Positions 20,470 through 64,000 of a stretch of DNA of 64,000 bases are shown in pieces. The notes beneath the pieces are model-generated. The model was not told the origin of the DNA and made no database searches. It was given only the letters and a program-made list of their open reading frames with translations. Origin of the DNA: Candidatus Latescibacterota bacterium (GTDB lineage: Bacteria > Latescibacterota > UBA2968); assembly GCA_965205975.1 (NCBI GenBank), contig OZ242195.1, forward strand, positions 3,424,001-3,488,000. Reading direction: 5' to 3'. The translations under genes and the position numbers were made by a program. Within the stretch, counting starts at the first letter, position 1. Each line of letters opens with the position of its first letter.

Positions 20470-20506
20470 AAATCGTGATCTAAAACACATAACAAACGGA
20501 GCAAAA

Positions 20507-22230: not shown

Positions 22231-22242
22231 GGATATTCAACT

Positions 22243-22533
22243 ATGATGGTTCTCGTTACTTATGATGTCTCAACTACCACTACCGATGGTCCAAAACGTT
22301 TGCGGCATGTTGCCAAGGCGTGTCGCGACTTTGGACAAAGAGTGCAGTTCTCAGTGTTTGAAATCGAAGTCGATCCAGCACAATGGACTGCCTTGAAAGC
22401 ACGTCTTGAGACGATTATTGATCCAGAGACCGATAGTCTCAGGTATTATTTTCTCGGAACGAATTGGAAACGCCGTGTCGAACATGTCGGTGCCAAACCG
22501 GCTACTGATCTGAGCGGGACACTGATCGTGTGA
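22243..22533 (+). CDS. cas2: CRISPR-associated Cas2
   Basis: [26 protein letters not shown]. Confidence 0.95.
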
Positions 22534-22725
22534 GGTGTCTAAGCCCAGCGCGAACCATAAGCAGTCAGACAAATACAGGGAGGTCCGCACTTTGTCTAAC
22601 TTATTGAAAATTAGAAAAATTGGAGACACTCTCTTTACGGATGATAGGGATTTAGAGTTATGAATCACTCCCTTCGCGCAAGTATAGCTCGAACCTATTG
22701 TAACACAATGAATTAGATTGTAACA
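22534..22725 (+). promoter_or_regulatory. CRISPR leader
   Basis: AT-rich non-coding region between cas2 and the first repeat, with a GCGAACC...GGTCCGC inverted motif of the kind seen in type I-C leaders. Confidence 0.75.
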
Positions 22726-24981
22726 GTCGCTCCCTACATGGGGGCGTGGATTGAAACCCCAGATCGAAGCGTCTATAAATCGTCTCAACAAGGTCGCTCC
22801 CTACATGGGGGCGTGGATTGAAACGTCAACATCATTAGAGATACCACGCACACCAAACGTCGCTCCCTACATGGGGGCGTGGATTGAAAAACCCTTGCTT
22901 CCTGTGTCGCTCCCTACATGGGGGCGTGGATTGAAACTACGACAACCCGTATGTGAAGATGATGATGGGCAGGTCGCTCCCTACATGGGGGCGTGGATTG
23001 AAACAGATGTCGATATTGACTTGGGCTTCTCCATGTGGTCGCTCCCTACATGGGGGCGTGGATTGAAACACATCGGCACTTGGGTTCAAGTTTCGCGTGG
23101 GTGGTCGCTCCCTACATGGGGGCGTGGATTGAAACTCGTATGGCGTCGTTGTATGTGTGTCCCGATTCGGTCGCTCCCTACATGGGGGCGTGGATTGAAA
23201 CAGATATTTCGTCATACGCGCCGAGAGAATCATTCGTCGCTCCCTACATGGGGGCGTGGATTGAAACAAGATCATTCCCGCAGCCATTGATGCAGGTGTC
23301 GTCGCTCCCTACATGGGGGCGTGGATTGAAACCGGTCGGGGTGTTGGTATATCGTGGCAGAATGGCGTCGCTCCCTACATGGGGGCGTGGATTGAAACTT
23401 TCAAATAGCGGGGGTGTTCGCGCCCGTCGTCATGTCGCTCCCTACATGGGGGCGTGGATTGAAACGTGCAGTACCCGGGCCAGCTTATGAGCGTCGCGCG
23501 TCGCTCCCTACATGGGGGCGTGGATTGAAACACAGGCAGGGTTGCCCTGTTGCCGGTGGTCAAGGTCGCTCCCTACATGGGGGCGTGGATTGAAACCTGT
23601 CTCAAGAGCGCGACAATGGTATGGTACACCGTCGCTCCCTACATGGGGGCGTGGATTGAAACAGCTAAACAAGCTAAAGGCTGGCGATGATATGTCGTCG
23701 CTCCCTACATGGGGGCGTGGATTGAAACCACATCGACTTGGGCGAACAATCCTTGACCGCAAGGTCGCTCCCTACATGGGGGCGTGGATTGAAACAAAAG
23801 CGGACAAGCGGTGACGATTACCACGTCGAGTCGCTCCCTACATGGGGGCGTGGATTGAAACTGTCCCGCCTGTGTAGAATACGCCACCATATTCGTCGCT
23901 CCCTACATGGGGGCGTGGATTGAAACCATAGGGATGTTCTCGCGCCACCTGATTGATGTTGTCGCTCCCTACATGGGGGCGTGGATTGAAACTCCACCAG
24001 TTCGGGTGTCCAGTCATTGGGTAGCGTCGCTCCCTACATGGGGGCGTGGATTGAAACATTGCACCTGTCCAGTAGCCAGGGATGCCAAAGAGTCGCTCCC
24101 TACATGGGGGCGTGGATTGAAACTGAATGAGGAAAACCACCGCACTACCGGGCACGGGTCGCTCCCTACATGGGGGCGTGGATTGAAACCATTTTGGGTC
24201 GGGATGGTCGCCGTGACTCGACAGTCGCTCCCTACATGGGGGCGTGGATTGAAACATATTCCGTGATACTCCATATTGTTTTCGTGAAGTCGCTCCCTAC
24301 ATGGGGGCGTGGATTGAAACCGCAATTTGGTATCAGAACAGAAGCCGACTTGATGGTCGCTCCCTACATGGGGGCGTGGATTGAAACATTCATTGTCAAC
24401 CGCTTAATCTCGCATGCGATAGTCGCTCCCTACATGGGGGCGTGGATTGAAACAGTCTCCAATGAACAGATAACCTAAACCTCGCAGGGTCGCTCCCTAC
24501 ATGGGGGCGTGGATTGAAACATAACAGAATCCTCCTGTGAAAAATTACACTGGCGGTCGCTCCCTACATGGGGGCGTGGATTGAAACCAATCGGGATCAG
24601 CAGAAGGGTTTACAAGATGGTGTCGCTCCCTACATGGGGGCGTGGATTGAAACTGGTACAACATACAGAGCAAGAATGGTCCAACAAGTCGCTCCCTACA
24701 TGGGGGCGTGGATTGAAACATCTATTGATACTCCAAAGTCACCAGCAGGAATAGTCGCTCCCTACATGGGGGCGTGGATTGAAACGAGTCGATGCGCGCC
24801 TGTTTTCGTGTGTCGATGCGGTCACTCCCTACACGGGAGTGTGGATTGAAACTTCATCCGTGTCTATTATGATGTCGTGACAGACAGTCGATTCCTTCCT
24901 GGGAGCGTGGATCGAAACAGCCACAGGCACGTTGCCTTTGTCTCTCCGTGCGGCACTCCTTTATGGGGTGGGGATTAAAAC
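22726..24981 (+). CRISPR. Type I-C CRISPR array, 35 repeats / 34 spacers
   Basis: 32-bp repeat GTCGCTCCCTACATGGGGGCGTGGATTGAAAC. Spacers are 33-35 bp except one of 15 bp. The last three repeats (24821, 24887, 24952) are progressively degenerate. Confidence 0.98.
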
Positions 24982-44180: not shown

Positions 44181-45926
44181 ATGAGCAAATCGAAAAGTGC
44201 CGCAGACATTAACATTCTCGACGCTGCCGAAAAATGGAAACAGCAATGCCTTTTGGATGGTGGATCGCTATTCTCGGAAGAATCTCTCTGGACCCGAGGA
44301 AACTTCGAACAACTCCGCATCCACTTTGTCCAGAATCCTGATAAAGGATCGGGTAAATTCTACGAGAAACTGGCGCAACAACTGGAACATGCTCCCCCAG
44401 AGGCGAAGCGTCTATGGGCTGAAATGACATGGGTACTTTTTTTAATCGTCTATCGCGGCGTGCTTAAACCAGAGACAAAACGCGCTCAGATCAGGCAAGT
44501 CTGGGAATGGTCGGGGTCGAAACTTCCGGATAATCATTGGGCACTGGGCGACGTCTTAGCAAAAGGGGTTACAAATCCAGGCCAAGCTTATAATACTTCC
44601 CGTTGGCGAGAATGCCGCTTCTTCATCACCACGATGATGAGCTGGTTTTCCCATTCCTCAGAGGATCGAAAATCGCTATTGACCGATCCCTGGGACTTTG
44701 CCGAATGGCTCGACGCTCAGGAGTACTGTCAAGGCCGTCAATTTCGACATGCTTTTCTGTACCTTCTGTTTCCGGATGCGTTTGAAGCAATTATGAGTCA
44801 AGGCCATAAAGAAAAAATAGTCAACGCTTTCTCAAAAAAATGGAATGAGAATCTGCTCACTAACGACGGGGATAACGTCGCTCTCGATCAAGCATTATTG
44901 AAAATTCGGAAACGCCTTAAGGACGAATACCCCGACACGGGAATCGACTTCTACAGTGCGCGGTTCAAGGATATTTGGCAATCCAGTCAGCCGCCTCCAC
45001 CACCGCCGCCACCGGAAGTGAGGGAAACAGCATTTCTTTTTGTTTCCTATTCCATAGAAAACATCCTGACAGAAGGCTGTTTTCTTCAACGAGAAAAACT
45101 GGAAACAATCCTTCAACGCCTCCGCGACAAGAAAAATCTAATCCTGCAAGGGCCTCCGGGCACGGGCAAAACATGGCTGGCAAAAAAGCTGGCCTTCGCC
45201 TTAATAGGTGAACGCAAAGAAGACAAAATACGCCCTGTGCAGTTTCACCCCAATCTTTCTTACGAAGATTTTGTCAGAGGATGGCGACCATCAGGCGACG
45301 GCAAGCTGGATCTGGTTGATGGCCCCTTTCTTCAGATGATAAACACCGCAAAAGACGATCCAGAGTCACAATATGCGATCATCATTGAGGAAATCAATCG
45401 CGGCAACCCCGCACAAATTTTTGGCGAGATGCTCACGCTACTGGAATCGGACAAGCGAAAAGAGACCGAAGCATTGGAACTGTCTTATCGAAAAAGAGAA
45501 GGCGAACGGGTTTACATTCCCGAAAACCTGTATGTCATCGGCACAATGAACGTTGCCGACCGCTCAATCGCTATGGTCGATTTCGCCCTTCGCAGGCGAT
45601 TCGCCTTTGTTGACCTTGAACCCATATTTGGCAATGTCTGGCAGGACTGGGTACATAATCAGTACAAAATAGACGAGGAATTTCTGCTACAAGTAGCAGA
45701 AAGAATGAATGTGCTGAACGAACAGATAGCTGGGGATGCTAATCTCGGTGCTCAATTCAGGGTGGGACACAGTTATGTAACGCCTTCCGCTGGGGAGATT
45801 GATGATTCCCATGAATGGTTCAAACAAGTAGTCGAAACCGAAATCGGCCCCTTGCTGGACGAATACTGGTTTGATGCGCTGGATACAGCCCAAAAGTCCC
45901 GAGAAAAACTACTGGAAGGGTTATAA
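44181..45926 (+). CDS. mcrB: McrB-family AAA+ GTPase of modification-dependent restriction
   Basis: GPPGTGKT, VQFHPNLSYEDF, EEINRG, GTMNVADRS, ALRRRF. Confidence 0.92.
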   Translation: MSKSKSAADINILDAAEKWKQQCLLDGGSLFSEESLWTRGNFEQLRIHFVQNPDKGSGKFYEKLAQQLEHAPPEAKRLWAEMTWVLFLIVYRGVLKPETKRAQIRQVWEWSGSKLPDNHWALGDVLAKGVTNPGQAYNTSRWRECRFFITTMMSWFSHSSEDRKSLLTDPWDFAEWLDAQEYCQGRQFRHAFLYLLFPDAFEAIMSQGHKEKIVNAFSKKWNENLLTNDGDNVALDQALLKIRKRLKDEYPDTGIDFYSARFKDIWQSSQPPPPPPPPEVRETAFLFVSYSIENILTEGCFLQREKLETILQRLRDKKNLILQGPPGTGKTWLAKKLAFALIGERKEDKIRPVQFHPNLSYEDFVRGWRPSGDGKLDLVDGPFLQMINTAKDDPESQYAIIIEEINRGNPAQIFGEMLTLLESDKRKETEALELSYRKREGERVYIPENLYVIGTMNVADRSIAMVDFALRRRFAFVDLEPIFGNVWQDWVHNQYKIDEEFLLQVAERMNVLNEQIAGDANLGAQFRVGHSYVTPSAGEIDDSHEWFKQVVETEIGPLLDEYWFDALDTAQKSREKLLEGL

Positions 45927-47038
45927 TGGACACCGTTCTAGAAAACGACAATCTGGGGTACATCGGAGAAATTCCAGTCAGAAATCTCTGGCTACTGATG
46001 CTTTATGCGTCCCAACTATTCCGACAGATAAACGATTTGCAAAAGAGAAAGGTTGAAGACAATCCCGACGACATCCCCGACCTGGTGGCTGAAATCCTGT
46101 CGTGGACGGTAGAACGTCGCTTGAGGCGAAACCTGAGCTTTGGCTACCAGCCCAAACAAGCTATCCTCAGCAGGGTGCGCGGCAGAATCGACCATATCCA
46201 TACAGAACGCCGCCAACTGCTGCACAGAGGTCTTGTTGCATGCCGGTTTGAAGAACTAACAGTAGATACACCACGCAACCGCTATGTTCGAGCGGCATTG
46301 GAAAAGTCGGCCAATATGGTACGAAGCGTTGACCTATCCCATCGATGTCGCGTCCTTGCCATCCGTTTAATGCACATGGGAGTGAATGGGGAACATCTTA
46401 TCCGACATGCCCCATCGGTAAATCTCACTGGTCGGATAGACACCGCTGACCGGCAGATGCTGGCTGCGGCACAACTGGCCTTCGATTTGGCACTGCCCAC
46501 CGAAACCGCTGGCCCCAGGAATTTATCTTCACCATCCCGCGAACCCCAATGGGTACGGAAACTTTATGAAAAGGCCATCGCCGGATTCTACGACGTCACG
46601 CTTACACAACGAAGGTGGAGAGTTCATCCCGGGCGACAACTCGATTGGTCCAAAGGTAAGAAGACTAAGGGTATTGATAACATCCTCCCAAAAATGCTCA
46701 CGGATATCGTTATAGACGATGTAGTTTTGGATCATCGTATCATCATAGACACTAAATTTACATCCATCCTTAAACCCGGAAATTACCGTACCCAAACATT
46801 GGCCTCACCCCATATATACCAGATATACGCCTACTTGAGATCCCAGGAAGGTTTGGGTGATCCTCTGGCGGACACGGCATCGGGCATACTCCTGTATCCT
46901 GCTATTAATTGCTCAGTTGACGAATCGGTTGACATACAGGGTCACAACATACGATTCGCCACCGTAAATCTCGACGCAACTCCTGGAGAGATCCGGCACA
47001 GGCTCCTTGAATTGATTGATCCCGCCCTGGTAAAATAA
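45926..47038 (+). CDS. mcrC: McrC restriction subunit
   Basis: IPVRNLWLLMLYAS, TDIV...IIIDTKF, YQIYAY; translationally coupled to mcrB. Confidence 0.92.
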   Translation: MDTVLENDNLGYIGEIPVRNLWLLMLYASQLFRQINDLQKRKVEDNPDDIPDLVAEILSWTVERRLRRNLSFGYQPKQAILSRVRGRIDHIHTERRQLLHRGLVACRFEELTVDTPRNRYVRAALEKSANMVRSVDLSHRCRVLAIRLMHMGVNGEHLIRHAPSVNLTGRIDTADRQMLAAAQLAFDLALPTETAGPRNLSSPSREPQWVRKLYEKAIAGFYDVTLTQRRWRVHPGRQLDWSKGKKTKGIDNILPKMLTDIVIDDVVLDHRIIIDTKFTSILKPGNYRTQTLASPHIYQIYAYLRSQEGLGDPLADTASGILLYPAINCSVDESVDIQGHNIRFATVNLDATPGEIRHRLLELIDPALVK

Positions 47039-47071
47039 AAAAACGCCATCAGCTATTTGCCGATGGCGTTT
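47037..47071 (-). terminator. Rho-independent terminator identical to 41455-41488
   Basis: AAAAAAACGCCATCAGCTATTTGCCGATGGCGTTT. Confidence 0.8.
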
Positions 47072-47147
47072 ATGCTTATCTTTGGTGCTTTCAAAGATCG
47101 TATGGTATCGCTAATTCCTCAGGGAGTTTTCGCAGATAGGCAGTACC

Positions 47148-47519
47148 CTACTGTTCTCCCACCCCATTGCCCATCTCGATGGATTGGGCGTTCGCAAGCG
47201 AAGTCACAAAATCAACATCTTTTGCATCCTTGCTTTTGATCAGGATAATTGGCTTATCAAGGGCAGATGCCATTCCAGCTTCATAGTTCACCCATTGTGA
47301 TTTGGCACTATTCGGCGTGACAATAATTACTACGTTACTCGCGCTACACATCTGTTGCTTTATCGCCTCCCGAACATCGTCACCAATCTTGGTATCTACG
47401 CGAAGATCAATAAACGACATGTCGTCGGTATCGTGACCAGACTTCTTCAATAATCTGGACACCTGTTCTGCAATATCACGGTCCTGATAAGCATAAGAAA
47501 GGAATACTTTTTTACTCAT
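47148..47519 (-). CDS. Stand-alone TIR-domain protein
   Basis: KVFLSYA, SAKSQWVNYEAG (conserved TIR Glu), KPII; AAGGAG RBS. Confidence 0.85.
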   Translation of the reverse strand: MSKKVFLSYAYQDRDIAEQVSRLLKKSGHDTDDMSFIDLRVDTKIGDDVREAIKQQMCSASNVVIIVTPNSAKSQWVNYEAGMASALDKPIILIKSKDAKDVDFVTSLANAQSIEMGNGVGEQ

Positions 47520-47642
47520 TCTCGCGCTCCTTATCCCGCCAGATATATTGACAAACGGGCATGTTGATCTATAATATACTGAAAGGGAAGAAATCCGAGG
47601 GATTTTTCATATCTAAAACCATCTAAAATCTCACTGCATAAA

Positions 47643-50135
47643 ATGATAGATATCAATAGACAACGCAATATACTGAGCCAGGTTGATCTTCTTAGATATA
47701 ACCTCGTTAAAAAGAAAAAAAAGAAAAACCACCTTGGCCAGTTCTTTACGCCTGCTCCGATAGCTGAGTTCATGGCACAGATGTTTCGCATATCAGAAGC
47801 CTCTGTTCATTTGCTTGATGCCGGTGCTGGAATAGGCTCTCTTTCTGCTGCTTTTGTCGATTATGTCTGCACACAGAAGCAGACCCCCAAGGAATTTACA
47901 ATCACAGCCTATGAAATTGATGCTTCATTGACGCCATTTTTAGAAAATACATTGAACGCCTGTCGCTCAAAATGTGAGCAACTCGGCATTCATTTTAGCT
48001 ACAAAGTGATCAATGAAGATTTTGTCAAAGCTGCTACATCTGCACTCAGACAAGATCTGTTCTCTCCTCCTGCCAAGAAGTTCAATTATGCTATTCTCAA
48101 TCCCCCCTACAAAAAAATCCAGAGTGCTTCTGAACACAGAAAATTATTGCGTCGCCTTGGGATTGAAACGAGCAATCTTTATACAGCCTTTCTGGCGATA
48201 ACAAAAAAATTGCTGACTGAAGAGGGACAACTCGTTGCAATTACACCGAGAAGCTTCTGCAATGGACCTTATTTCAAAGCATTTAGAAATGACTTTCTCG
48301 AAGAAATGGCATTAAAGAGAATTCACATCTTTGAATCCAGAAAAAGGGCCTTCAGCGACGATGGTGTCCTGCAAGAAAACATCATTTTCCATGCGATCAA
48401 ATCTAAGGCAACGCCATCAAAGATAGCGATCTCATCTCATTCATCTCCAAGAGATCCTCTATTCTGGAGAGATGTGGAATATAACCATGTGATACATCCA
48501 CAGGATCCTGATAAGTTCATTCACATCATTACAGATGAGACAGACCATCAAATAGCTGAAAAGATGAAGCATTTTCAATCAACTCTGGAGGAACTCGGCA
48601 TCTCGGTATCAACGGGCAGAGTTGTTGATTTCCGGGCGAACAAATTCTTGAAACAGGTACCAAATAAGAAAACAGTGCCCTTAATTTATCCCATGCATTT
48701 CCAGCAAGGTTTTGTTGAATGGCCCTCCAAAAACATTAAGAAGCCCCACGCCATTATTTCTTCAGAAGAATCCAAAAATTTATTGGTCCCTTCTGGCACG
48801 TATGTTTTGGTAAGGCGTTTCTCCTCAAAAGAAGAAAAACGCAGGGTCGTAGCTGCTATCTACGATCCAGAGCGAATAAAATCAGAAACAGTAGGCTTTG
48901 AAAACCATCTGAATTATTTCCATTGCAATGGAAAAGGGCTGCCTGCACATCTTGCAAAAGGGCTGGCAGTTTTTCTTAATTCAATGATGGTTGACGCTTA
49001 CTTCAGATTGTTCAACGGCCATACGCAGGTAAATGCTACGGACTTGAGAAGTCTTAAATACCCTTCAAAAGAAAAACTCGAATCTCTGGGGGCAAAAATT
49101 AAGGACAGATTACCGAATGGTGATGCGTTGGATGATTTAATTGAACAAGAGGTCTTTAATATGGCAAATGAAAGCGGGAAACCAGATCCAATCAAAAGAA
49201 AACAGAAGATAGAAGCAGCACTCGCAATTCTGAAATCTATTGGTATGCCAGGTGCCCAGCAGAATGAGCGTTCAGCATTAACCTTGCTGGCATTGATCGA
49301 TGTAAAATCTGAAACACAGTGGGAGGATGCGAATAATCCTTTGATTGGCATTACACCCATCATGAATTTTGCGGCTGATCATTATGGGAAACAATACGCA
49401 CCAAATACGAGAGAGACCGTTAGAAGACAGACAGTACATCAATTTTTGGATGCTGGCATTATCCGCATCAACCCCGATGACCCTGATAGACCGACCAATA
49501 GCCCTAATACGGTGTATCAAATTGAAAATTCTACTCTTGACCTGATTCGGTCTTATGGCAGTGCAAAATGGAATGACGAGTTAGAGAAATTCCTGCAATC
49601 AATAGAGACTTTGCAAGCGAAGTATGCACAGGAGCGTCAGGCAAGAAAAATCCCCGTTGATATTTCAAACACAACCCAGGTAAACCTCTCTCCTGGGGGA
49701 CAGAACGAGCTTGTTAAGAAAATCATTGACGATATGTTTCCCAATTTCGCACCTGATGGTACGGTAATCTATCTTGGGGATACCGCCAGCAAATTTGCCT
49801 ATTTTGACAGGAAAGCACTTGAAATGTTAGGCGTGGATATTGAAGACCACGGTAAGATGCCAGATGTAGTCATTCATCATAAGCAAAAAAATTGGTTGCT
49901 GCTTATTGAAGCTGTAACCAGTCATGGCCCTGTTGATCCAAAACGTCGAGGAGAGTTGCAACAACTCTTTGCAACCTCAAAAGCAGGACTTGTTTTTATT
50001 ACAACATTTTTGACTCGAAGAGATATGATGAGATATCTCTCTGAAATCTCCTGGGAAACAGAAGTCTGGATCGCTGAATCTCCAACACATATGATACACT
50101 TTGATGGGGAGAGGTTTCTGGGGCCTTATGAATGA
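47643..50135 (+). CDS. Fused N6-adenine methyltransferase and BsuBI/PstI-family restriction endonuclease
   Basis: MTase motifs GQFFTP, LDAGAGIG, NPPY, FNGHTQVNATDL; REase motifs YAPNTRETVRRQT, HGKMPDVV, IEAVTSHGP; one ORF. Confidence 0.9.
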   Translation: MIDINRQRNILSQVDLLRYNLVKKKKKKNHLGQFFTPAPIAEFMAQMFRISEASVHLLDAGAGIGSLSAAFVDYVCTQKQTPKEFTITAYEIDASLTPFLENTLNACRSKCEQLGIHFSYKVINEDFVKAATSALRQDLFSPPAKKFNYAILNPPYKKIQSASEHRKLLRRLGIETSNLYTAFLAITKKLLTEEGQLVAITPRSFCNGPYFKAFRNDFLEEMALKRIHIFESRKRAFSDDGVLQENIIFHAIKSKATPSKIAISSHSSPRDPLFWRDVEYNHVIHPQDPDKFIHIITDETDHQIAEKMKHFQSTLEELGISVSTGRVVDFRANKFLKQVPNKKTVPLIYPMHFQQGFVEWPSKNIKKPHAIISSEESKNLLVPSGTYVLVRRFSSKEEKRRVVAAIYDPERIKSETVGFENHLNYFHCNGKGLPAHLAKGLAVFLNSMMVDAYFRLFNGHTQVNATDLRSLKYPSKEKLESLGAKIKDRLPNGDALDDLIEQEVFNMANESGKPDPIKRKQKIEAALAILKSIGMPGAQQNERSALTLLALIDVKSETQWEDANNPLIGITPIMNFAADHYGKQYAPNTRETVRRQTVHQFLDAGIIRINPDDPDRPTNSPNTVYQIENSTLDLIRSYGSAKWNDELEKFLQSIETLQAKYAQERQARKIPVDISNTTQVNLSPGGQNELVKKIIDDMFPNFAPDGTVIYLGDTASKFAYFDRKALEMLGVDIEDHGKMPDVVIHHKQKNWLLLIEAVTSHGPVDPKRRGELQQLFATSKAGLVFITTFLTRRDMMRYLSEISWETEVWIAESPTHMIHFDGERFLGPYE

Positions 50136-52853: not shown

Positions 52854-54482
52854 ATGATGAGCAAAGAATTGAAAGCAGTTTTTCATTTTTGGAAGCGTTT
52901 TGCGTGCCAAAATGGCCTGAATCGCCGCGATTTAATCAAAGGCGTCGCCACCGCAAGTCTCGGTCTGGCAGCCGGAACCTTCGGCGCGCCACAGCTCTAC
53001 GGAAATTCAAACGTATCGAAATCAAAACGACGTAATCGTATCCAACTCGAAAACGCCAAAAAAGGAACGCGCGACTGGTTGCTCACTAAGACCGACATCA
53101 ACGACATCGAACCGGTGGCGTTGTGGCGTTCCCCGCGAATCGAGGGCTACTGCTCCGAGACGAGCGTGAGCGCTGGCGACACGCTCAAGATCATGGTGAG
53201 CACGAATCCAGTGTCCCAGTTTGATCTGGAGATCTTCCGCACGGGTTACTACGGCGGAACCGGCGGTCGTTTCATGAAGCGCTTTGATTCTATACAGGGC
53301 AAAACCCAGACCGATCCGTCGATAGGCGAAAACCGTCTGCGCGAATGCCAATGGGAACCTTCCGTAGAATTCGAGATTCCAGACGATTGGCTGAGCGGCG
53401 TCTATCTCGGGAAACTCACTGCCAAGGAGGGCGACGTGCAAAGCTACGTCATCTTTATTGTGCGCGATGATCGCCCCTGCGATTTGCTCTTCCAGTGCAG
53501 CGACATGACCTGGCAAGCCTACAATAGCTGGCCTACCAACGAGTGGTCTCTTTATCACAACGACGAGAATGGCTACACGGGATATAAGAAAAGGAAAAAG
53601 TGGAGCACCAACGCAAACGATACCGGGTGGGTGAGTTTTGACCGTCCCTACGCGCAGTTCTGCCAGGATCATCTTGTCAAGAATCCCAAGTCCGTGGGCA
53701 CGGGCGAATTTCTTCTTTGGGAATTCCCCCTCTCCTATTGGATAGAGCAGCAGGGCTACGATGTGTCGTATATCTCAAATGTGGATACACACAGACACGG
53801 TCCGAGATTACAACGCGCGAAAGGCTTTATCTCGGTAGGGCACGACGAGTATTGGACCCGGGAGATGTACGACAACGTCAGCGCGGCTCGGGACGCCGGT
53901 GTCAACCTTGCGTTCCTGAGTGGTAATTCGGTTTGGGGTGTGGTGCCCTTGCTGCCCTCTGCCGAGGGGCAGTTCCACCGAATCATGCGACGCGAAGATA
54001 AGTTCCTTGGCGAGGAACTCAGCAAGATGTTGAACAAGAGACGCGGCACCCCCGCCAAGTATCCAGCGGGGCCGGACGCGGCGTTGCTCATGGGGGGACG
54101 CACCGCCGGCATTGGCGGAGGTGACTGGACCTGCACCCAACCCAATCACTGGATCTATAATGGGAATGGCATGCAAAAAGGTGACACCATTGATGGACTA
54201 ATAGGCTGGGAATGGCATGGATCGCCTGCTCTCGAACTGCCTAACTTTGAGGTTCTGGCCGAGGGACCGATGCTACCGAAGAGGTACAGTCCTCATGCCG
54301 CTACGATCTACGATGGGCCGAAGAATAATGTCGTATTCAACGCCGGGACGATCTGGTGGGCGCAAGGCTTGTCGTCGCCTCCCGGCCACGTATTGCCCGC
54401 ACACAGGCATGCCAAGCCGAAAGGCCCTGACTCGCGCGTGCAGCGTATGATGACCAATGTGTTCGATCGGTTTATCAAGTAA
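52854..54482 (+). CDS. Tat-exported N,N-dimethylformamidase beta-subunit-like domain protein
   Basis: NRRDLIKG Tat motif; TWQAYN, VSFDRPY, VGHDEYWT, FLSGNS, VFNAGT. Confidence 0.8.
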   Translation: MMSKELKAVFHFWKRFACQNGLNRRDLIKGVATASLGLAAGTFGAPQLYGNSNVSKSKRRNRIQLENAKKGTRDWLLTKTDINDIEPVALWRSPRIEGYCSETSVSAGDTLKIMVSTNPVSQFDLEIFRTGYYGGTGGRFMKRFDSIQGKTQTDPSIGENRLRECQWEPSVEFEIPDDWLSGVYLGKLTAKEGDVQSYVIFIVRDDRPCDLLFQCSDMTWQAYNSWPTNEWSLYHNDENGYTGYKKRKKWSTNANDTGWVSFDRPYAQFCQDHLVKNPKSVGTGEFLLWEFPLSYWIEQQGYDVSYISNVDTHRHGPRLQRAKGFISVGHDEYWTREMYDNVSAARDAGVNLAFLSGNSVWGVVPLLPSAEGQFHRIMRREDKFLGEELSKMLNKRRGTPAKYPAGPDAALLMGGRTAGIGGGDWTCTQPNHWIYNGNGMQKGDTIDGLIGWEWHGSPALELPNFEVLAEGPMLPKRYSPHAATIYDGPKNNVVFNAGTIWWAQGLSSPPGHVLPAHRHAKPKGPDSRVQRMMTNVFDRFIK

Positions 54483-55854: not shown

Positions 55855-55883
55855 TTGAAATTTTAAGCGCACGATGTTATACT
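55855..55883 (+). promoter_or_regulatory. Putative sigma70 promoter of the CARF-bEBP gene
   Basis: TTGAAA-17 bp-TATACT with extended -10 TG. Confidence 0.6.
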
Positions 55884-55919
55884 ACAAAAGTCAATGGAAT
55901 GTCTCAAGAGGATAATGAT

Positions 55920-57563
55920 ATGCAACATAAATTGGTCGCTGTAGTCGGCAGCACACCGCAAGTTATGACAGAAACTTTCTGGGCATTGCGTGTCCAGCGC
56001 AAAGTGCCCATTGATGAAGTATTTGTGATAACGACAACCGTAGGTAAAGAAACCTGTCAGAAACGCCTTTTGGATGAAGGCCGCTTTAAAAAGATGTTGT
56101 CAGATTACAATATCGATCCCAATACTGTCGCGTTCGGTCCCGATCATATCCAGGTATTTGAAGATGCTGAAGGTAATCCTTTAGACGATATCCGCACCTC
56201 GGAAGACAATCGCCTGGCCCGGGATCAACTTTTCCACTGGATTGAGAACTGGACGCAGAATGTTGATGTCGCTTTACACTGCTCGCTCGCAGGCGGACGG
56301 AAGTCAATGGGATACTTACTCGGTGCTGCTATTCAATTTTTTGGTCGGCCACAAGATCGCCTGTATCATGTGCTGGTCACACCGCAAGCAATTGAAACAA
56401 ATCGCGATTTCTTCTTTCCACCTGTGCGCGAAGCGCAAATCCCCACATCAGACGGGCAACACATTTCTACTGCTGATGTGCGTATTGAGTTGGCAGAATT
56501 GCCCTATGTATCGGTAAGAGATATATCCGCATTTGACGATGAAAACTATGACCTGATTCTACAGAAAACACAAGCAGAAGTGCGACGTGTTCCACGTCTA
56601 AAAGCAGAAAACAAGCGACTGAGAGAAACATCGGGCAATGCTGGCGGCTTGATCGGAAATAGCTTTGCAATGCAGAAAAACAAAGACCAGATTCGGCAAG
56701 CTGCTGATGCAGATGGTGCAACCGTGTTGATTTTGGGTGAAACGGGAACGGGTAAAGAACGGGCAGTTGAAGCACTACATGAACAGAGTGTGAGAAAGGA
56801 TAAATCATTCATAGCGATTAACTGTAGTGCATTTCCAGGTGAACTTTTGGATGTAGAGCTATTTGGTGCAGTTGAAGGCGCTTATAGTGGACAAGCCGGG
56901 CCACGCGAGGGTGCGTTTCGCGCAGCCGAAGGTGGTACCCTTTTCCTCGATGAAATAGGAGACTTATCACATGAAGGACAGGCGAAGCTATTGCGCGTAT
57001 TACAAGAAAAGAAAGTGCGTCCGCTTGGCAGTGATGAACAAGAGAAAGAAGTTGATGTACGCATTGTTGCGGCAACCAATCGCGATTTGAAGGCCATGGT
57101 TCAAGAAGGAACTTTCCGAGAGGACCTATTGTATCGCCTCAATGTTTTGACCATTGACATGCCGCCGTTGCGAGAACGACGCGAAGATATACCGGAGTTA
57201 ATCGACCTGTTTTGTGAACAGTTTAATGAGAAATACAAACGCAATGTTGTGGGCTTTGATACCCCAGCCATAGAAGCCATGTGTCGCTATACCTGGCCGG
57301 GCAATGTGCGCGAGCTTGAAAATGAAGTTGCGCGCATCGTCTCTGACTCACCACAGAGTGCATTTCGGGTGCATAAGGAAGACTTAGCCAAGCGTATTAT
57401 TGAATCGACAGATTTAGACACGGGTAGTGGTACGCTCAAAGAATTAGTGGCGCAATTTAAGAGGCATACGATTCAGGAAACATTGGCGCGAACACAGGGC
57501 AATGTTAAAAACGCCGCGAAGATACTGGGTATTGACGAATCAACGGTGAGACGAAATCGGTAG
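55920..57563 (+). CDS. CARF (NE0113/Csm6 ring-nuclease type) domain fused to sigma54-dependent AAA+ activator and Fis-type HTH
   Basis: N-terminus VGSTPQVMTET, ITTT, CSLAGGRKSMG, DRLYHVLV. Central GETGTGKE, ELFGAVEGAYSG, LFLDEIGDL, QAKLLRVLQE, FREDLLYRLN, WPGNVRELEN. C-terminus GNVKNAAKILGID. ATG 55920 behind GAGGA (alternative start 55899). Confidence 0.9.
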   Translation: MQHKLVAVVGSTPQVMTETFWALRVQRKVPIDEVFVITTTVGKETCQKRLLDEGRFKKMLSDYNIDPNTVAFGPDHIQVFEDAEGNPLDDIRTSEDNRLARDQLFHWIENWTQNVDVALHCSLAGGRKSMGYLLGAAIQFFGRPQDRLYHVLVTPQAIETNRDFFFPPVREAQIPTSDGQHISTADVRIELAELPYVSVRDISAFDDENYDLILQKTQAEVRRVPRLKAENKRLRETSGNAGGLIGNSFAMQKNKDQIRQAADADGATVLILGETGTGKERAVEALHEQSVRKDKSFIAINCSAFPGELLDVELFGAVEGAYSGQAGPREGAFRAAEGGTLFLDEIGDLSHEGQAKLLRVLQEKKVRPLGSDEQEKEVDVRIVAATNRDLKAMVQEGTFREDLLYRLNVLTIDMPPLRERREDIPELIDLFCEQFNEKYKRNVVGFDTPAIEAMCRYTWPGNVRELENEVARIVSDSPQSAFRVHKEDLAKRIIESTDLDTGSGTLKELVAQFKRHTIQETLARTQGNVKNAAKILGIDESTVRRNR

Positions 57564-57597: not shown

Positions 57598-57745
57598 GTG
57601 CAGAATTGCACAGCCCGTGCAAAAATGCACGTTTAAACATATTGCTGTTTATTTCCTGTTTCAAAAAAATATCACACAACCTGTTGTTTTTTTTGATCTC
57701 TGAGGAAATTTCGGAGATTTTTTTGTGTTTGGCACGCGGATTGCA
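57598..57745 (+). promoter_or_regulatory. Sigma54 promoter 1 (upstream of cas6) with paired palindromic UAS and IHF-like site
   Basis: GTGCAGAATTGCAC 57598-57611, GTGCAAAAATGCAC 57617-57630, CAACCTGTTGTT 57677-57688, TGGCACGCGGATTGCA 57730-57745. Confidence 0.85.
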
Positions 57746-57792
57746 TATACAATGAGTGCTATCGCAAAAATCCAAATACAAAGGAGATATTG

Positions 57793-58752
57793 ATGTTTGA
57801 TCTGAAATTCGCGTATATGCGCTTGCACTTCAAAGCGCGGGGCCATCTGCGCCTGCCATCTTATAAAGGCTCCACATTTCGCGGGGCTTTTGGCGTGGCA
57901 TTTAAGCGCGCGGTCTGTATTGTGCAACACGGGGAATGCGAGCGGTGTCTGATTCGGACGCAATGCGTGTATCCATACGTATTTGACACACCAGTAGATA
58001 ATGCACAGGGCATATTTCGCGGATATAGCGAAGCACCCCATCCCTATCTGATCGAACCCCCGCTGGAAACCAAAACCGATTATGCACCGGACGATGAATT
58101 TGCGATTGGCCTGACCCTGATAGGCCGCGCACTGAATTACATGCCCTACTTCATCTACACATTCCAGCGCATGGGAGACACAGGTATTGGACGCGGACGC
58201 GGCAAATGCGACCTCATCTCGGGCGAAGCACTGCACACCGATGGGACATGGCAGGCGGTGTACGACGGAGCGAGCGAGATGTTGCAACAAGATGTACCCC
58301 ATCTGACCGCGCAGGATCTGATGCACAACGAAATAGGATCCCGGATTCGCCTCTCATTTGTAACGCCCACCCAACTCAAAGCAGACCGAATATTACAGCG
58401 CGGACTGGATTTCCCCGTACTCATACGCGGGTTATTGCGGCGGTATTCGGCATTGGCCGCATTTCACGCAGACGGACCGCCAGATATAAATTATGCCGAC
58501 TATGTCGCACAAGCAGAGAATATTCAAACCACATCCCACAATTTGACCTGGCGCACATGGGAACGGTATTCAAACCGCAAAAACCGGCGTATGAGCGTAA
58601 GTGGTTTTACAGGAGACGTGGTCTTTGAAGGCGACATGACACAATTTCACCCCCTGCTGGCACTGGGCGTGCCAATGCACGTTGGCAAATGGACCAGTTT
58701 TGGGATGGGACAATACGCTATAGAAGGAAGAAGTGTGAAGGAAGAAGTGTGA
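57793..58752 (+). CDS. cas6: Cas6 pre-crRNA endoribonuclease (with Cys-rich insert)
   Basis: GSTFRGAFG, C..CERC...C, FVTP, C-terminal Gly-rich loop HVGKWTSFGMGQY; AAGGAG RBS. Confidence 0.9.
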   Translation: MFDLKFAYMRLHFKARGHLRLPSYKGSTFRGAFGVAFKRAVCIVQHGECERCLIRTQCVYPYVFDTPVDNAQGIFRGYSEAPHPYLIEPPLETKTDYAPDDEFAIGLTLIGRALNYMPYFIYTFQRMGDTGIGRGRGKCDLISGEALHTDGTWQAVYDGASEMLQQDVPHLTAQDLMHNEIGSRIRLSFVTPTQLKADRILQRGLDFPVLIRGLLRRYSALAAFHADGPPDINYADYVAQAENIQTTSHNLTWRTWERYSNRKNRRMSVSGFTGDVVFEGDMTQFHPLLALGVPMHVGKWTSFGMGQYAIEGRSVKEEV

Positions 58753-58777
58753 AGAAGGGCAGCATATAGCCAAATAA

Positions 58778-58926
58778 GTGCAAAATTGCACAGAGGACGT
58801 GCAGAAATGCACGCTTGAACATGTTGGTGTCAATTTGATTTTAGAAAAAATATCGTATAACATATTGTTTTCTCGTAAATTAAAAAATAAATTCAAATTT
58901 TCTTCTACTTTGGCACGCGGATTGCA
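58778..58926 (+). promoter_or_regulatory. Sigma54 promoter 2 (upstream of ykvA-cmr genes) with paired palindromic UAS and IHF-like site
   Basis: GTGCAAAATTGCAC 58778-58791, GTGCAGAAATGCAC 58799-58812, TAACATATTGTT 58858-58869, TGGCACGCGGATTGCA 58911-58926. Confidence 0.85.
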
Positions 58927-59632: not shown

Positions 59633-60091
59633 ACGTGATGTGTGACTTTAAATAGACAAAAAGAGGTTCCTCGGCTATCTTGGATTGTCCGTAAAACAAG
59701 AAGCCATGCAACGAAAGGAACCTCCAATGTATAATTTAGCCCTTTTTGTCATTACAATCTACTGTTTTATTGAAGACGACCTCTATCCAGCGTATTGTGA
59801 GGTGCATGGCAAGCCGCGTCGGGCAGGCTTTGAACCCGGTTTAAGTGATGTGGAATGCCTCACCATAGAAATTGTGGGTCACTTTTTGGGGTATTCAAGC
59901 CAGAAGAAACTTTATGAGCAGATGCGCGAACACTTTTTGCGCGCATGAAAGTGCGAGATGCTTGGCATCTATTAAACTTGTGGCATACCAAAATCTTAAC
60001 CCATACCATGTGTGTCTTTCTAAATATCATCAATTACAGAGACCCGCTGGATTTTGACGGCCTCGTAACATTTTGAAGTCACACATCGCGT
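59633..60091 (+). mobile_element. Internally deleted IS982-family-like insertion sequence
   Basis: TIRs ACGTGATGTGTGACTT / AAGTCACACATCGCGT; flanking 9-bp near-duplication TAAGAATCA / TAAGAATAA; truncated transposase N-terminus (RRAGFEPGLSDVECLTIEIVG..LG). Confidence 0.75.
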
Positions 60092-60159
60092 TAAGAATAA
60101 AGTGTATAGAAACCCATACGTGTGGGGACAATACGGTTTAATTTGAAAGGAGAAGCGTG

Positions 60160-61011
60160 ATGAATAGGACAGTGTTGAATCTTGAAACCGTGACACCAAT
60201 GTTTCTACATGGAGAGAATAGTCGAAATCTCGAACTTCGACCACCGCCATTCAAATCACTGATGCGTTATTGGTGGCGAACTGTGCAGGATTGCAACGAG
60301 ACATTTCTTCGAGAAAAAGAAGCAGCGTTATTTGGTAGTACAAAAGGTAAATCACCATTTTCAATTCGTATTTTAGGAGAAACGAAACTGGACTGTAGGA
60401 ACTATAAGCCGTTGCCTCATCGAACCGATAATCGTGGTTTTTTCGCAGATGCTTATAAAGAGGGACAGTCATTTGACCTGTATCTGATTATAACGAATGG
60501 CTCAAATGTCCCGAATTATGCACAGATTGCAAAACTTGGCTTACTACTCGGTGGTGTTGGCAATCGCTCTCGACGCGGATTCGGTTCGATCCGGGAAACA
60601 AGCTGGAATTTCACAAATGTGTCCAATCTGCGACAGGAAATTTTGGATACTCTCAACACTGTCGCAGACAATGATCGTTTTCAGATGAAGGGCAAGATCA
60701 TTGAATCCAAACTCACCCATTTCCCAAGCTATCCTGTTATTCAGTGTATATTTTTTGGCAACCCAACACCCGATGTTGACACCCTATTAAGAAAAATCGG
60801 ACAGGCGACACATGAAGCAAAGAGAAAAAATCGTGACCATACACTCGGAGAAGGTACGCCGCGTATGGCATCGCCTGTGATCGTTAGAATCCAAAAAGTT
60901 GGAAATAAATTTATTCCGGTTGTCACGCAACTTCACTCGATTTATCCGCAATACACGCCAAATAATTTTGAGCAGAAGCAAAAGGATTTTATTAACGCGA
61001 TCATTACGTAG
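60160..61011 (+). CDS. cmr1: Type III-B RAMP protein Cmr1
   Basis: ETVTPMFLHG, ELRPPPFKSLMRYWWR, LFGST, GGVGNRSRRGFGS, RMASPV. Confidence 0.9.
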   Translation: MNRTVLNLETVTPMFLHGENSRNLELRPPPFKSLMRYWWRTVQDCNETFLREKEAALFGSTKGKSPFSIRILGETKLDCRNYKPLPHRTDNRGFFADAYKEGQSFDLYLIITNGSNVPNYAQIAKLGLLLGGVGNRSRRGFGSIRETSWNFTNVSNLRQEILDTLNTVADNDRFQMKGKIIESKLTHFPSYPVIQCIFFGNPTPDVDTLLRKIGQATHEAKRKNRDHTLGEGTPRMASPVIVRIQKVGNKFIPVVTQLHSIYPQYTPNNFEQKQKDFINAIIT

Positions 61012-61022: not shown

Positions 61023-62906
61023 ATGAGTGGCAACCAGTCGAAACGTCTCATGCTCATGTTTACAATTGGTCCTGTACAATCGTTCATCGAAGCAGCCCGG
61101 AAGACAGAGGACTTGTGGATGGGGAGTTATATTCTGTCTTATCTCATCGCCAAAGCAATGGACAAAGTTCGAGGCGACGATATTGAGCTAATATATCCTG
61201 CTATTGGCAACCAATCGCCATTTGATTTTTGGCAGCAACAAGATTTCGCAACCCCATCTTTTCCCAATCTCTTTTTAGCAATTGGTAAAGGCACTGAGGT
61301 TTCTCAGGATGCGTTGGTCGAACTCGCAAAAGACGCTGAACGTACTGTAAAAACTGAATTTGAGCAAATGGCTAAATGTGTGATTGATGAAGCATTCAGC
61401 AAGTGGAGTGGCACTTATGTTGAGGAAGTGTTCAAACGACAAATCTCGGATTTTTTTGATATATATTGGGTGATTACTGAAGAAACAGATCAAAATTATG
61501 GGGATTGGTACGCCCACACCGCAGGTAGTCTTGCAGCTATCAAAAACTGCCGGACATTTGCACAAATCTGTGAGTTTGGACGAAAGTGTTCACTTGATGG
61601 AACACGCGAAATTCTCCATTTGAGGCAAGACGAACCTGTGCGAGAAGCAATGAAATGGTGGCAGGGTTTTGCTGAACGCGAACCAAAGTATTGTCGCGGA
61701 GAAGAGGCCCTCTGTGCTGTCTCACTAACCAAGCGAATGGGAAGACATTTTCTGGAGACCCAATCGGAATTTTCAGACGATTTTTCAGGCCAACCTCTGA
61801 GCTTTCCATCCACATCAGAGATAGCGACAGCGGACTTCAAAGAACAATTTCAATACAATATTGGGGCCTTAGGCATTTATGGAGATTTCGTTAAAGAAGT
61901 TAAAAAACTGAGGGCATTGGACAACAAACCAGCAGATATTCCAATTGTTCAACCCTTGCCAAAAGTCGGGATGCTCCAGGGGAATATTGACGGCGAATGG
62001 CTGTACGAAGAGACATGGAGCGAGTCCTATCTGAGAGGTTACTACAACATTGATGCAAAAAACGAGAAGAAGCAGATTAGTACTTGTAAGAGATTGCGTC
62101 AAAAACTTGTCCAATATCTCGGTGAACCGGGGCGATATTATGTCGCCATTGCACTTGATGGAGATAACATGGGCGAGAAGATTCGGGAAGCTAAAAGCAA
62201 GGAAGATCACAAAAAACGTAGCGGTGATCTGATTCAATACACGGAAGATGCTCGTCGGATTATTGAACAGGATCATCTCGGAAAGTTGATATATGCGGGC
62301 GGTGACGACATTCTTGCACTCACAAATCTTAAAGACCTCTTGCCTATATTGAAAGGGTTGCGTGAGAAATTCCCCAATTTCACGACAGCTTCGGCAGGCG
62401 TGTGTATTGCTCACAACAAGGTTCCGCTTGGAGATGTACTTCAGCAAGCGCGTCGGATGGAGAAAGCAGCGAAAAATGAAGGTGAACGTAATGCATTTGG
62501 AATCACACTGTTCAAACACTCTGGAAATATTAGCCAGGCGGTAACAAAGTGGACACACGGCGATTTGGATGTGCTCGACATCAGTGAGGAGTTGCTCAAC
62601 TTGTTGAGCGATAATGAAATTTCCAAGCGTTTTTTGTACGCTTTCCGTGAGACATTTGCAAAATTAATTGAAGACAAAGATGATTTTGGAGAACTGGGCC
62701 GTCACCTTATTCAAGCTGAGTTTGAACGGATTATGGAACGAGCACAGTCGAACAAAAAAACAGAATCCAAAGAGAGTCAACAAACCATCCATACACTTAC
62801 TCAACTCATCTATCATATCCAGCCTTTCTCTCACTTTCTCGGGTATTTAGAAATTATCAATTTCATTGCGAGGATAAAAAATGAAACTGTTTCTCCAACC
62901 CAATGA
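61023..62906 (+). CDS. cas10: Type III-B Cas10/Cmr2 (HD-less, intact GGDD palm)
   Basis: FTIGPVQSFIEAARKTEDLWMGSYILS, FPSTSEIA, ALDGDNMG, LIYAGGDD. Confidence 0.93.
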   Translation: MSGNQSKRLMLMFTIGPVQSFIEAARKTEDLWMGSYILSYLIAKAMDKVRGDDIELIYPAIGNQSPFDFWQQQDFATPSFPNLFLAIGKGTEVSQDALVELAKDAERTVKTEFEQMAKCVIDEAFSKWSGTYVEEVFKRQISDFFDIYWVITEETDQNYGDWYAHTAGSLAAIKNCRTFAQICEFGRKCSLDGTREILHLRQDEPVREAMKWWQGFAEREPKYCRGEEALCAVSLTKRMGRHFLETQSEFSDDFSGQPLSFPSTSEIATADFKEQFQYNIGALGIYGDFVKEVKKLRALDNKPADIPIVQPLPKVGMLQGNIDGEWLYEETWSESYLRGYYNIDAKNEKKQISTCKRLRQKLVQYLGEPGRYYVAIALDGDNMGEKIREAKSKEDHKKRSGDLIQYTEDARRIIEQDHLGKLIYAGGDDILALTNLKDLLPILKGLREKFPNFTTASAGVCIAHNKVPLGDVLQQARRMEKAAKNEGERNAFGITLFKHSGNISQAVTKWTHGDLDVLDISEELLNLLSDNEISKRFLYAFRETFAKLIEDKDDFGELGRHLIQAEFERIMERAQSNKKTESKESQQTIHTLTQLIYHIQPFSHFLGYLEIINFIARIKNETVSPTQ

Positions 62907-64000
62907 TACCTTCTTTTTTCGCGACGGGCGTCCTTTTACAAAAGGTGAACAGTCTGAAGGTCATTCAATTTTTCCACCCCTTCCCTCGACAGTTCTCGGT
63001 GCGTTGCGTACTGCATACATCGCTGAATTTGGTGATCTATCGCTTTTCTATTCCGGCGGGATGCGAGAGACGATTGGTACGCCGGAATCATTGGACAATG
63101 CTATTCAAGTGCGCAGTGTTTTTCTTGCAAATAAGCGAAACAATCAGATGGATCGAATGGAAATATTTTTTCCGGTGCCCCTTGATCTGGTATATAAAAA
63201 AACAAAAACTGAAAAGAGAGATGATCATACCCTCCTTCATTTACTGGTGCCGCAATCTAAAAATTTTGTGTCGAATGGGATAATCAGCACGCCACTTACA
63301 TGGCTAAATTCCGAGTCTATTGATTTCGATGCAGATGGATTGTTGCGACTGGGGGCAATCACACGATACTTACAAGGAAACAGTCAGAACCTGCTTCTTA
63401 CAAATCGGGCAACATTGGTTAAGCGCGAAACCAAAACGGGCATCGCGCGGGATAGACACACTTTGTCATCCGAAGAACACATGTTGTATCGTGTTGATAT
63501 GTCCAGATTTAAAAATAGAGATGGCAATTACGGCTTTTTGGTAGAATATGAATGCTCCAGGAATTTGCCACAAAAAGGACTTTTGAAATTAGGTGGAGAA
63601 GGCAAAGGTTTTGTCTATCAGCACAGCAACTATGATATTGATCCACTGTCCAGCCGTCTTGAGGCAGTCAAACGTGCCATCCAATCAACAAACAGATTCA
63701 AGCTATATTTTGCAACGCCGACCATATTCCGGAACGGATGGTTGCCTTCATGGTTGAATAGCGATACGCTTTCGGGTGAATACCCACTGGAGAATACGGC
63801 ACCAATTTCAATCAAATTAATCACCGCCGCGGTTGGTAAACCTGTTCCTGTTGGCGGATGGGACATGGCAAAAGGTGAGGCAAAACCCACTTATCGCGCA
63901 GTACCTGCTGGTAGCGTCTATTACTTTGAACTGATGGATAAAAATCGAATTGATGATTTAATCGCCGCTTTTCACTACCAAAACATCAGCGAGGAGCGTT
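62881..64000 (+). CDS. cmr3: Type III-B Cmr3 (runs off the window end)
   Basis: MKLFLQPNDTFFFRDGRPF, FPPLPSTVLGALRT, KLGGEGK, YFATP, GGWD, AVPAGSVYYF. Missing from the ORF track because it has no stop in the window. Confidence 0.92.
   Translation, partial: MKLFLQPNDTFFFRDGRPFTKGEQSEGHSIFPPLPSTVLGALRTAYIAEFGDLSLFYSGGMRETIGTPESLDNAIQVRSVFLANKRNNQMDRMEIFFPVPLDLVYKKTKTEKRDDHTLLHLLVPQSKNFVSNGIISTPLTWLNSESIDFDADGLLRLGAITRYLQGNSQNLLLTNRATLVKRETKTGIARDRHTLSSEEHMLYRVDMSRFKNRDGNYGFLVEYECSRNLPQKGLLKLGGEGKGFVYQHSNYDIDPLSSRLEAVKRAIQSTNRFKLYFATPTIFRNGWLPSWLNSDTLSGEYPLENTAPISIKLITAAVGKPVPVGGWDMAKGEAKPTYRAVPAGSVYYFELMDKNRIDDLIAAFHYQNISEER

Follow-up and report, generated by a model that had tools for sequence, protein, structure and literature searches.

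How are the genes of a type III CRISPR locus switched on when a regulator stands next to them? In a 64,000-nucleotide stretch of a Candidatus Latescibacterota chromosome ("the window"), cas6, ykvA and the cmr genes follow a gene for a protein that joins a CARF domain to a sigma-54 AAA+ domain and a Fis-type helix-turn-helix (HTH; Table 1). The locus raises the question of whether this protein controls the genes behind it, through which DNA sites, and in response to which signal.

Two promoter cassettes can be read directly in the window: P1 ahead of cas6 and P2 ahead of ykvA and cmr. The original prediction placed an identical 16-mer at the core of both, and we read TGGCACGCGGATTGCA at 57730-57745 and at 58911-58926; a genome scan found no other copy in 5.56 Mb. 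Each copy is a GG-N10-GC (-24/-12) box, followed by a ribosome-binding site and a gene. Upstream of each box are two GTGCA-N4-TGCAC palindromes. As had been described, the proximal ones end 100 bp (P1) and 99 bp (P2) before the -24 box; the distal ones end 119 bp (P1) and 120 bp (P2) before it. The cassettes had been called geometrically identical, and they nearly are, but the spacing of the palindromes is 19 bp in P1 and 21 bp in P2. The YAAC-N3-TTGTT element that was said to end 42 bp upstream is there in both. Read on the minus strand, it is one mismatch from the IHF consensus, WATCAANNNNTTR. P1 starts just 34 bases past the stop codon of the activator gene.

Table 1. Features of the activator gene, the two promoter cassettes and the genes behind them, in window coordinates.
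Feature	Position	Strand	Remark
Sigma-70-like promoter ahead of activator gene	55855..55883	+	TTGAAA-17-TG-TATACT, 10 of 12
Activator gene: CARF5/NE0113, coiled coil, sigma-54 AAA+, Fis-type HTH	55920..57563	+	
P1 distal palindrome, GTGCA-GAAT-TGCAC	57598..57611	.	Predicted activator site; direct read
P1 proximal palindrome, GTGCA-AAAA-TGCAC	57617..57630	.	Direct read
P1 IHF-like site	57677..57689	-	1 mismatch to consensus; in 12/12 P1 copies
Terminator-like hairpin with T run	57695..57719	+	Ends 10 bp before -24 box
P1 sigma-54 -24/-12 box	57730..57745	+	Predicted start near 57756
cas6, first gene after P1	57793..58752	+	PF10040
P2 distal palindrome, GTGCA-AAAT-TGCAC	58778..58791	.	Direct read
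P2 proximal palindrome, GTGCA-GAAA-TGCAC	58799..58812	.	Direct read
P2 IHF-like site	58858..58870	-	1 mismatch; perfect consensus in 2/5 P2 copies
P2 sigma-54 -24/-12 box	58911..58926	+	Predicted start near 58937
ykvA (DUF1232), first gene after P2	58990..59340	+	First in 5/5 P2 copies
cmr1	60157..61011	+	
cas10/cmr2	61023..62906	+	GGDD cyclase motif intact; no HD domain detected
cmr3	62881..64000	+	Runs past window end

Within the window, the -24/-12 pattern by itself is not significant: with up to one mismatch it matches 10 times, a count reached by 7 of 100 shuffles. The host does have the machinery for sigma-54 promoters. Its genome has one match to rpoN (E = 1.9e-59) and 27 matches to PF00158, about 22 of which are activators. 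Four genes belong to the HU/IHF family, and three of these score best as IHF, at scores below the curated cut-offs. Strict boxes with an N5 spacer number 58 across the genome, versus 14-28 with N3, N4, N6 or N7 and 9 for the reversed pattern. A box lies within 4 kb at 11 of 22 activator loci, several of which have a palindrome of their own. A receiver-domain activator (core regulator) of this genome has TGCA-N5-TGCA behind it, one base longer than the N4 site, and another activator gene is followed by a longer TGCA palindrome. Other activators in the lineage likewise precede their own distinct palindrome and box. Together with a geometry that is kept across 22 promoters (below), the rpoN and IHF-like genes support the original sigma-54 reading well, and we are nearly certain that the sigma-54 promoters are real and that their enhancer motif is specific to this locus.

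The DNA between the elements had been described as diverged, which would point to selection on the motifs. This is only partly so. When P1 and P2 are aligned, all 20 positions of the palindrome arms, all 16 of the box and 10 of 13 of the IHF-like site are identical, and so are 58 of 91 linker positions; none of 500 shuffles reached the linker alignment score. The linkers are thus homologous, and a convergent origin of P1 and P2 is ruled out. The excess of identity in the motifs (36/36 positions) over the linkers implies a duplicated promoter with its motifs under selection, but because the cassettes are paralogs, they are not independent evidence for the motif. Three related loci (L004, L005 and L009) have a single promoter, placed after the activator gene and heading ykvA; two of them, L005 and L009, also have a cas6-like gene 5' of the activator. 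The simplest history would be that cas6 moved behind the activator together with a second copy of the promoter.

An independent case came from the genome-wide scan for further targets that the original prediction had proposed. Tandem pairs of palindromes, defined by at most 2 mismatches in total and a spacing of 17-23 bp, occur three times in the genome versus 0.07 expected from the densities of single sites, and all three are in this CRISPR locus. Among seven control spacing windows, six gave no pairs and one gave a single pair, formed with a third, weak site at P2. All three tandem sites lie 98-104 bp ahead of a strict -24/-12 box. The new one, P3, is 8 kb past the window (G000:3496123-3496156, or L001:9123-9156) and ends 104 bases before a box at 3496261. 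Its linker is unrelated to the other two, since 97 and 198 of 500 shuffles scored as high as the comparisons with P1 and P2; we therefore regard the motifs of P3 as a second, independent case. There are A-tracts in place of the IHF match. IHF-like sites (at most one mismatch to the consensus) are present in 17/17 copies of P1 or P2 and in 0/5 copies of P3.

P3 sits at the trailer end of the locus's 39-repeat array, flanked by two decayed repeats, and is followed by a gene for a TPR/AEP primase-polymerase and then by cas1 and cas2. Such primase-polymerase genes are named CAPP. The full element (L001:9123-9276; G000:C1:3496123-3496276) is wedged between the repeats like a long spacer. After the repeat that follows it, L001:9330-9370 is not a normal spacer but a repeated palindrome, of which the genome has 33 copies, and it differs in the relatives. 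Because the predicted start of the P3 transcript lies 6 nt ahead of a repeat, the cas1-cas2 message might be trimmed by Cas6. P3 recurs in four related genomes (G013, G016, G019 and G020). It is absent from the 900 bases read 5' of the primase-polymerase gene in G015; that gene has no match in G008, and the copy in G012 is interrupted by a contig end.

No further members of the regulon turned up: a relaxed genome scan for tandem sites plus a box returned only P1, P2 and P3. Perfect GTGCA-N4-TGCAC palindromes occur 10 times in the genome, and 4 of these are the P1 and P2 sites; the other five perfect single palindromes (including one at window position 28937) have no box 60-200 bp away. Conversely, across 75 sigma-54-like sites in the genome, TGCA-N4-TGCA is found 60-200 bp upstream only at the three CRISPR boxes. 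The cassette was not found at the leader of the main array, nor at the separate type I-C system in the window (14763-24752; cas3, 5, 8, 7, 4, 1 and an array).

A terminator-like hairpin abuts the box in two of the cassettes. It folds in 9 of 12 P1 copies (-7 to -11 kcal/mol) and in all five P3 copies (-13 to -15 kcal/mol), and it is absent from all five P2 copies. The P1 hairpin would insulate cas6 against read-through.

The activator and the cassette also travel together. The protein is encoded in 8 of 41 related genomes, and these 8, but none of the remaining 33, also contain P1 DNA, although co-occurrence overstates the case because these are kin genomes with the gene and the promoters on one mobile block, so that the counts are not independent. 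We found 13 loci with the activator gene, 12 of which are readable (L007 ends inside the gene). In all 12, which include type III-A, III-B and III-D-like loci, a box and at least one site lie 3' of the activator: no more than about 280 bp separate the stop codon from the box, and a site with at most 2 mismatches is 89-119 bp ahead of the box. The genes downstream vary, with csm, cmr and III-D-like sets as judged from their open reading frames. The site-to-box gap of 89-119 bp holds for all 22 promoters (copies of P1, P2 and P3). L009 and L057 lack 10 bp, or one helical turn, between the IHF-like site and the box, and five loci have a tandem pair at 168-188 bp plus a single site at 97-99 bp. 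The palindromes also show symmetric changes in both arms: the proximal site is AGGCA-N4-TGCCT in L002 and L003, and the distal site is CTGCA-N4-TGCAG in L004 and L005. In L006, L008, L010, L011 and L012, an insert of about 70 bp stands between the distal pair and the proximal site, giving three sites, and it holds a hairpin-like stretch and a T run.

As a negative control, we used seven type III loci that lack the activator gene (in G001, G014 and G017, two in G018, and the second loci of G016 and G020). These 279 kb contain no boxes and no tandem sites. A looser pattern, run across the phylum, matched 49 of 168 genomes and was rejected as too permissive. Eight of its matches, in genus g25, were rejected as well: they belong to a different, receiver-domain activator. 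There (L053-L061), TGCA-N5-TGCA sites, a box and a sigma-factor-like gene come after the gene for this sigma-54 activator, and a neighboring GAF activator has its own GCTACA/TGTAGC palindrome.

Both the distribution among genomes and the control loci support the original assignment of the palindromes to the CARF activator next to them. Judging from these sequence comparisons, it is very probable that this protein reads them.

The activator has 547 amino acids if it starts at the ATG at 55920; the reading frame may open at 55899. Among 10 related loci, five have a -10 element similar to that of its sigma-70-like promoter (TATACT) ahead of the gene. Pfam identifies an NE0113 CARF domain, the sigma-54 AAA+ domain (PF00158) with its lid, and a Fis HTH. 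The CARF domain scores 185 bits against TIGR02584 (cut-off 80.65), and PADLOC assigns residues 1-203 to CARF5. RtcR, the studied CARF regulator with a sigma-54 AAA+ domain, is a poorer fit. The protein scores 290 bits against NF038308 (RtcR; cut-off 650), Pfam finds no RtcR N-terminal family in it, and PADLOC's RtcR model matches residues 242-483 only. PADLOC's RtcR_PspF2 (CARF_AAA_HTH) model aligns 226-545 of the protein to 151-473 of its 481 positions, leaving the CARF part unmatched. The neighbors are cas6, ykvA and cmr, and the rtcA/rtcB operon is not adjacent.

Because residues 151-242 have pLDDT below 50 in the full-length structural model, we modeled the CARF domain alone (pLDDT 88). 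Its closest solved folds are tied: Sso2081/Crn1 (Z 14.9, rmsd 2.3, 147 aligned), Cad1-CARF (Z 14.8, rmsd 3.2, 157 aligned) and Sis0455 (Z 14.6), with Csa3 and Cami1 lower, at about 10. In motif I (GxT), G10 and T12 are nearly invariant, and in motif II (AGGRK), G125 to K128 are invariant in 29/29 sequences. K128 aligns with K106 of a Cad1 chain. In the account of Cad1 in PMC12669630, K106A abolishes binding of cA4, and the same CARF domain also cuts cA4. The domain of the activator is thus of the canonical NE0113/CARF5 type and keeps the binding lysine, which sets it apart from RtcR, and binding of cOA is predicted from its relatives. A sequence search of the PDB with the CARF domain gave one weak match, the ESM Atlas and a metagenome scan gave generic sigma-54 activators only, and a cluster look-up gave no names for six distant fusions.

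The AAA+ domain has intact Walker A and Walker B motifs and arginine fingers, and the HTH scores 30.2 bits against PF02954 (cut-off 22), with three helices modeled at pLDDT 80-89. Among 91 full-length homologs, the AAA+ domains fall into two clades that are 43% identical, versus 65% in the CARF domain. Clade A has 59 proteins with mostly GAYTGQ, GTYTGQ or GAYTGL loops; the other clade has 32, with GAFTGA-like loops. Our copy has GAYSGQ, as do 4/91 homologs, while GAFTGA itself is found in 10/91 and position 4 is T or S in all 91. The other loops seen in this genome (19/19) keep the T and end in A. The cassette lies behind both clades, including a copy with the canonical GAFTGA (L012).

The recognition helix (window 57528-57563) is the least conserved part of the protein, with a mean identity of 0.49-0.53 versus 0.76-0.83 for the CARF and AAA+ domains and 44 variants in 91 proteins. 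Its variability, and the sharing of helix types between the two AAA+ clades, suggest recombination or diversifying selection. Here the helix is short, the protein ends in IDESTVRRNR, and such a short end recurs in about a dozen homologs. We looked for co-variation of helix and site and did not find it: variants of P1 track the adjacent DNA, and the P2 and P3 sites are unchanged under four types of recognition helix. The core of the HTH is kept among the 91 homologs (R545 in 80, S or T541 in 78, L or V543 in 88). By analogy with NtrC-family structures, the GC core may be read by this S/T-x-L-x-R frame.

A mechanism can be sketched from these parts. Two activator dimers would occupy the palindrome pair, some 130-158 bp upstream of the start, while sigma-54 polymerase would wait at the -24/-12 box, with the DNA bent by IHF at P1 and P2 or by A-tracts at P3. 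Upon binding target RNA, Cas10 would make cOA. The most likely messenger is cA4, because the locus encodes a Cami1-like CARF-RelE protein. The Cami1 type is described as cA4-activated, and type III loci tend to use one messenger (PMC11229360). cOA would then bind the CARF dimer and release the AAA+ domains, which would form a ring and open the promoter. The output would be more Cas6, Cmr complex, effector and Cas1-Cas2, so that processing, interference and adaptation would all come under positive feedback. Cleavage of cA4 by the CARF domain, an activity of its closest solved relatives, may then end the burst. Overall, we think it reasonably likely that crRNA processing, interference and adaptation are driven, as feedback, by a sigma-54 activator that is gated by cOA. 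We give about an even chance to a fuller proposal, in which a single operator motif carries a self-closing positive feedback with a built-in ring-nuclease timer, and in which sensor and operator are kept as a portable cassette that is placed over III-A, III-B and III-D-like operons while the AAA+ motor is swapped.

Promoters of the sigma-54 type give almost no transcription unless their activator is present. This would suit costly defense genes, and it recommends the pair for use as a cOA reporter. One difficulty is this: the hairpin of P1 would block read-through from the activator's sigma-70-like promoter, and the genome's only Cas10 match is the one in this locus, so a strictly off state would never make its first cOA. 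There must be leak, basal activity of the activator or a weak sigma-70 site (one such site, at 59653-59681, lies ahead of cmr1), or else the logic is inverted.

Other logic is the alternative we take most seriously, although we judge it unlikely. The same activator would act at the same sites, but it would be active when free of ligand, giving standing expression that cOA turns down, or it would respond to another signal, such as a linear product (A2>P) or, as for RtcR, broken RNA with a cyclic phosphate end; the CARF domain might serve mainly as the ring nuclease of the locus. This would solve the problem of basal expression, the closest folds of the CARF domain include ring nucleases, and NCBIfam names the domain a ring nuclease. 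There is also precedent in the sources: TaqCad1 is activated by A2>P (PMC12669630), and RtcR ignores cOA (PMC9650030). The precedents for direction favor cOA as an inducer, however, in that the CARF domain of RtcR represses and its ligand activates (PMC7790460, PMC9650030), and CARF5 effectors (deaminases) are activated by cA4 or cA6 (PMC12825302). Also counting against this alternative, PADLOC's RtcR models cover residues 226-545 only and leave the CARF domain unmatched.

We consider each of the remaining alternatives improbable. Another activator of the host could read the palindromes at real promoters, for instance the receiver-domain regulator with TGCA-N5-TGCA sites, and the CARF protein would then act elsewhere or from solution. 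A site that stays constant while the recognition helix varies would fit this idea, as would the presence of about 21 other activators in the genome and a one-mismatch N4 site in the promoter that this regulator has in family f4. But the N4 site is at no non-CRISPR sigma-54 promoter of the genome, the cassette is never found in the seven type III loci that lack the CARF gene, and it lies directly behind that gene, as with other activators and their palindromes; the conserved HTH core residues (R545, S/T541 and L/V543) also argue against it. Somewhat less probable still is a circuit that works in the relatives and is crippled here, with the genes running on leak or on a sigma-70 promoter. Two loop changes (T to S and A to Q), the early stop with its short last helix, and the weak site before cmr1 all hint at decay, and yet all four palindromes in the window are perfect, Y and Q or L are normal in 56/59 clade A proteins, and the short end is shared with about a dozen homologs. 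Loops with GAFS and GAYT are listed as activation-competent in PMC4641369, and the final Q is not among the variants listed there. Chance matches that were multiplied by a recent duplication would account for the homology of P1 and P2, but hardly for the contrast between motif and linker identity, the independent P3, the deletions that keep the helical phase, or the 22 copies in relatives; we consider this explanation close to impossible.

How does the proposed circuit compare to known systems? In RtcR, a CARF domain gates a sigma-54 AAA+ domain (PMC7790460, PMC9650030). The rtcBA system shares the domain order, the promoter layout (upstream activation sequence, an IHF or IHF-like site, and a -24/-12 box) and the gating of an AAA+ ring by a sensor. 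As described in those papers, however, the CARF domain of RtcR is divergent and binds tRNA halves instead of cOA, and RtcR controls RNA repair, whereas the protein considered here has a canonical NE0113/CARF5 domain with a basic residue in motif II and no match to the RtcR CARF models, and its putative targets are cas genes. Promoters of the NtrC, NifA and ZraR type share tandem palindromes about 100 bp or more upstream, a bending site and GG-N10-GC (PMC4641369). The differences from these standard sigma-54 promoters are that the N4 palindrome is confined to one locus and that a terminator-like hairpin abuts the -24 element in P1 and P3. The GT-N10-AC frame of the palindrome resembles the NifA site, and its TGCA core the NtrC site.

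The routes to transcription known so far are Csa3, in archaea, and ECF sigma factors that a protease releases; RtcR, the one CARF sigma-54 activator that has been studied, does not respond to cOA. Csa3 of the Sulfolobales is a CARF-HTH protein that combines a cOA-type sensor with DNA binding and controls genes for adaptation and interference; it binds cA4, belongs to type I-A systems, and has neither an ATPase nor a link to sigma-54 as it is presented in PMC9704534 and PMC10013973. The activator described here is instead bacterial, and its gene belongs to the very type III locus from which the signal comes. In type III loci, infection is also linked to transcription by CalpL-CalpT-CalpS (PMC11229360) and by DdvS-DdvA of Myxococcus (PMC12288465), but these are described as ECF sigma factors that are freed from an anti-sigma factor, with no enhancer and no AAA+ activator. 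Cad1 and Crn1 (Sso2081, Sis0455) have the closest solved CARF folds (Z of 14-15), with the motif-II lysine aligned, yet their outputs are deamination of ATP or decay of cA4, rather than the transcription predicted here.

Control of CRISPR transcription by CARF proteins was predicted earlier (PMC4012209); where that paper describes sigma-54 CARF activators, it places them with RNA repair and restriction systems, not with cas operons. PMC11229360 sets regulators aside for later study. Our literature search, which covered few subscription papers, found no sigma-54 activator of cas genes and no report of this motif. The CARF-AAA+ fusion may be listed in the 2020 classification of CARF proteins or its supplement.

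If the circuit works as proposed, it would be a ready-made and tight biosensor that converts cOA to transcription. A regulator, an operator, a bending site, start sites and a three-operon regulon are all predicted, so it is testable in E. coli with one gene and a 160-bp fragment. It also bears on how type III expression is tuned during infection and on whether cOA feeds back on cas genes and spacer uptake.

ykvA might be an overlooked accessory gene. It is the first gene after the promoter in eight loci (all five P2 copies and the single promoters of L004, L005 and L009). Copies with at least 74% identity are found in nine activator loci and one other genome, and none were found in four type III genomes without the activator. 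The GGDD motif of Cas10 is also present in loci L002, L003, L005, L008, L010, L045 and L065, and the pattern was not found in the stretches examined of L004, L009, L011 and L012.

Beyond cmr3, the locus continues with the CARF7-RelE (Cami1-like) gene, cmr4-6, the 39-repeat array, P3, and the primase-polymerase, cas1 and cas2 genes. The end of cmr6 overlaps a second CARF7 gene (L001:4697-5497), from which the N-terminal part is missing. Between ykvA and cmr1, a short open reading frame (window 59685-59948) has no match in Pfam, and the gap is shorter in L003; the frame looks like a transposase remnant. The leader of the array (L001:5700-5835) resembles the 5' end of a dimethylformamidase-like open reading frame (window 52857-52950). 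One of the 38 spacers, spacer 25, matches the organism's own chromosome at 31/33 bases (G000:C1:2776146-2776178), near another activator gene. The locus is part of a wider defense region: inspection of open reading frames at 44181-50135 of the window suggests a McrBC-like pair and a fused methyltransferase-endonuclease.
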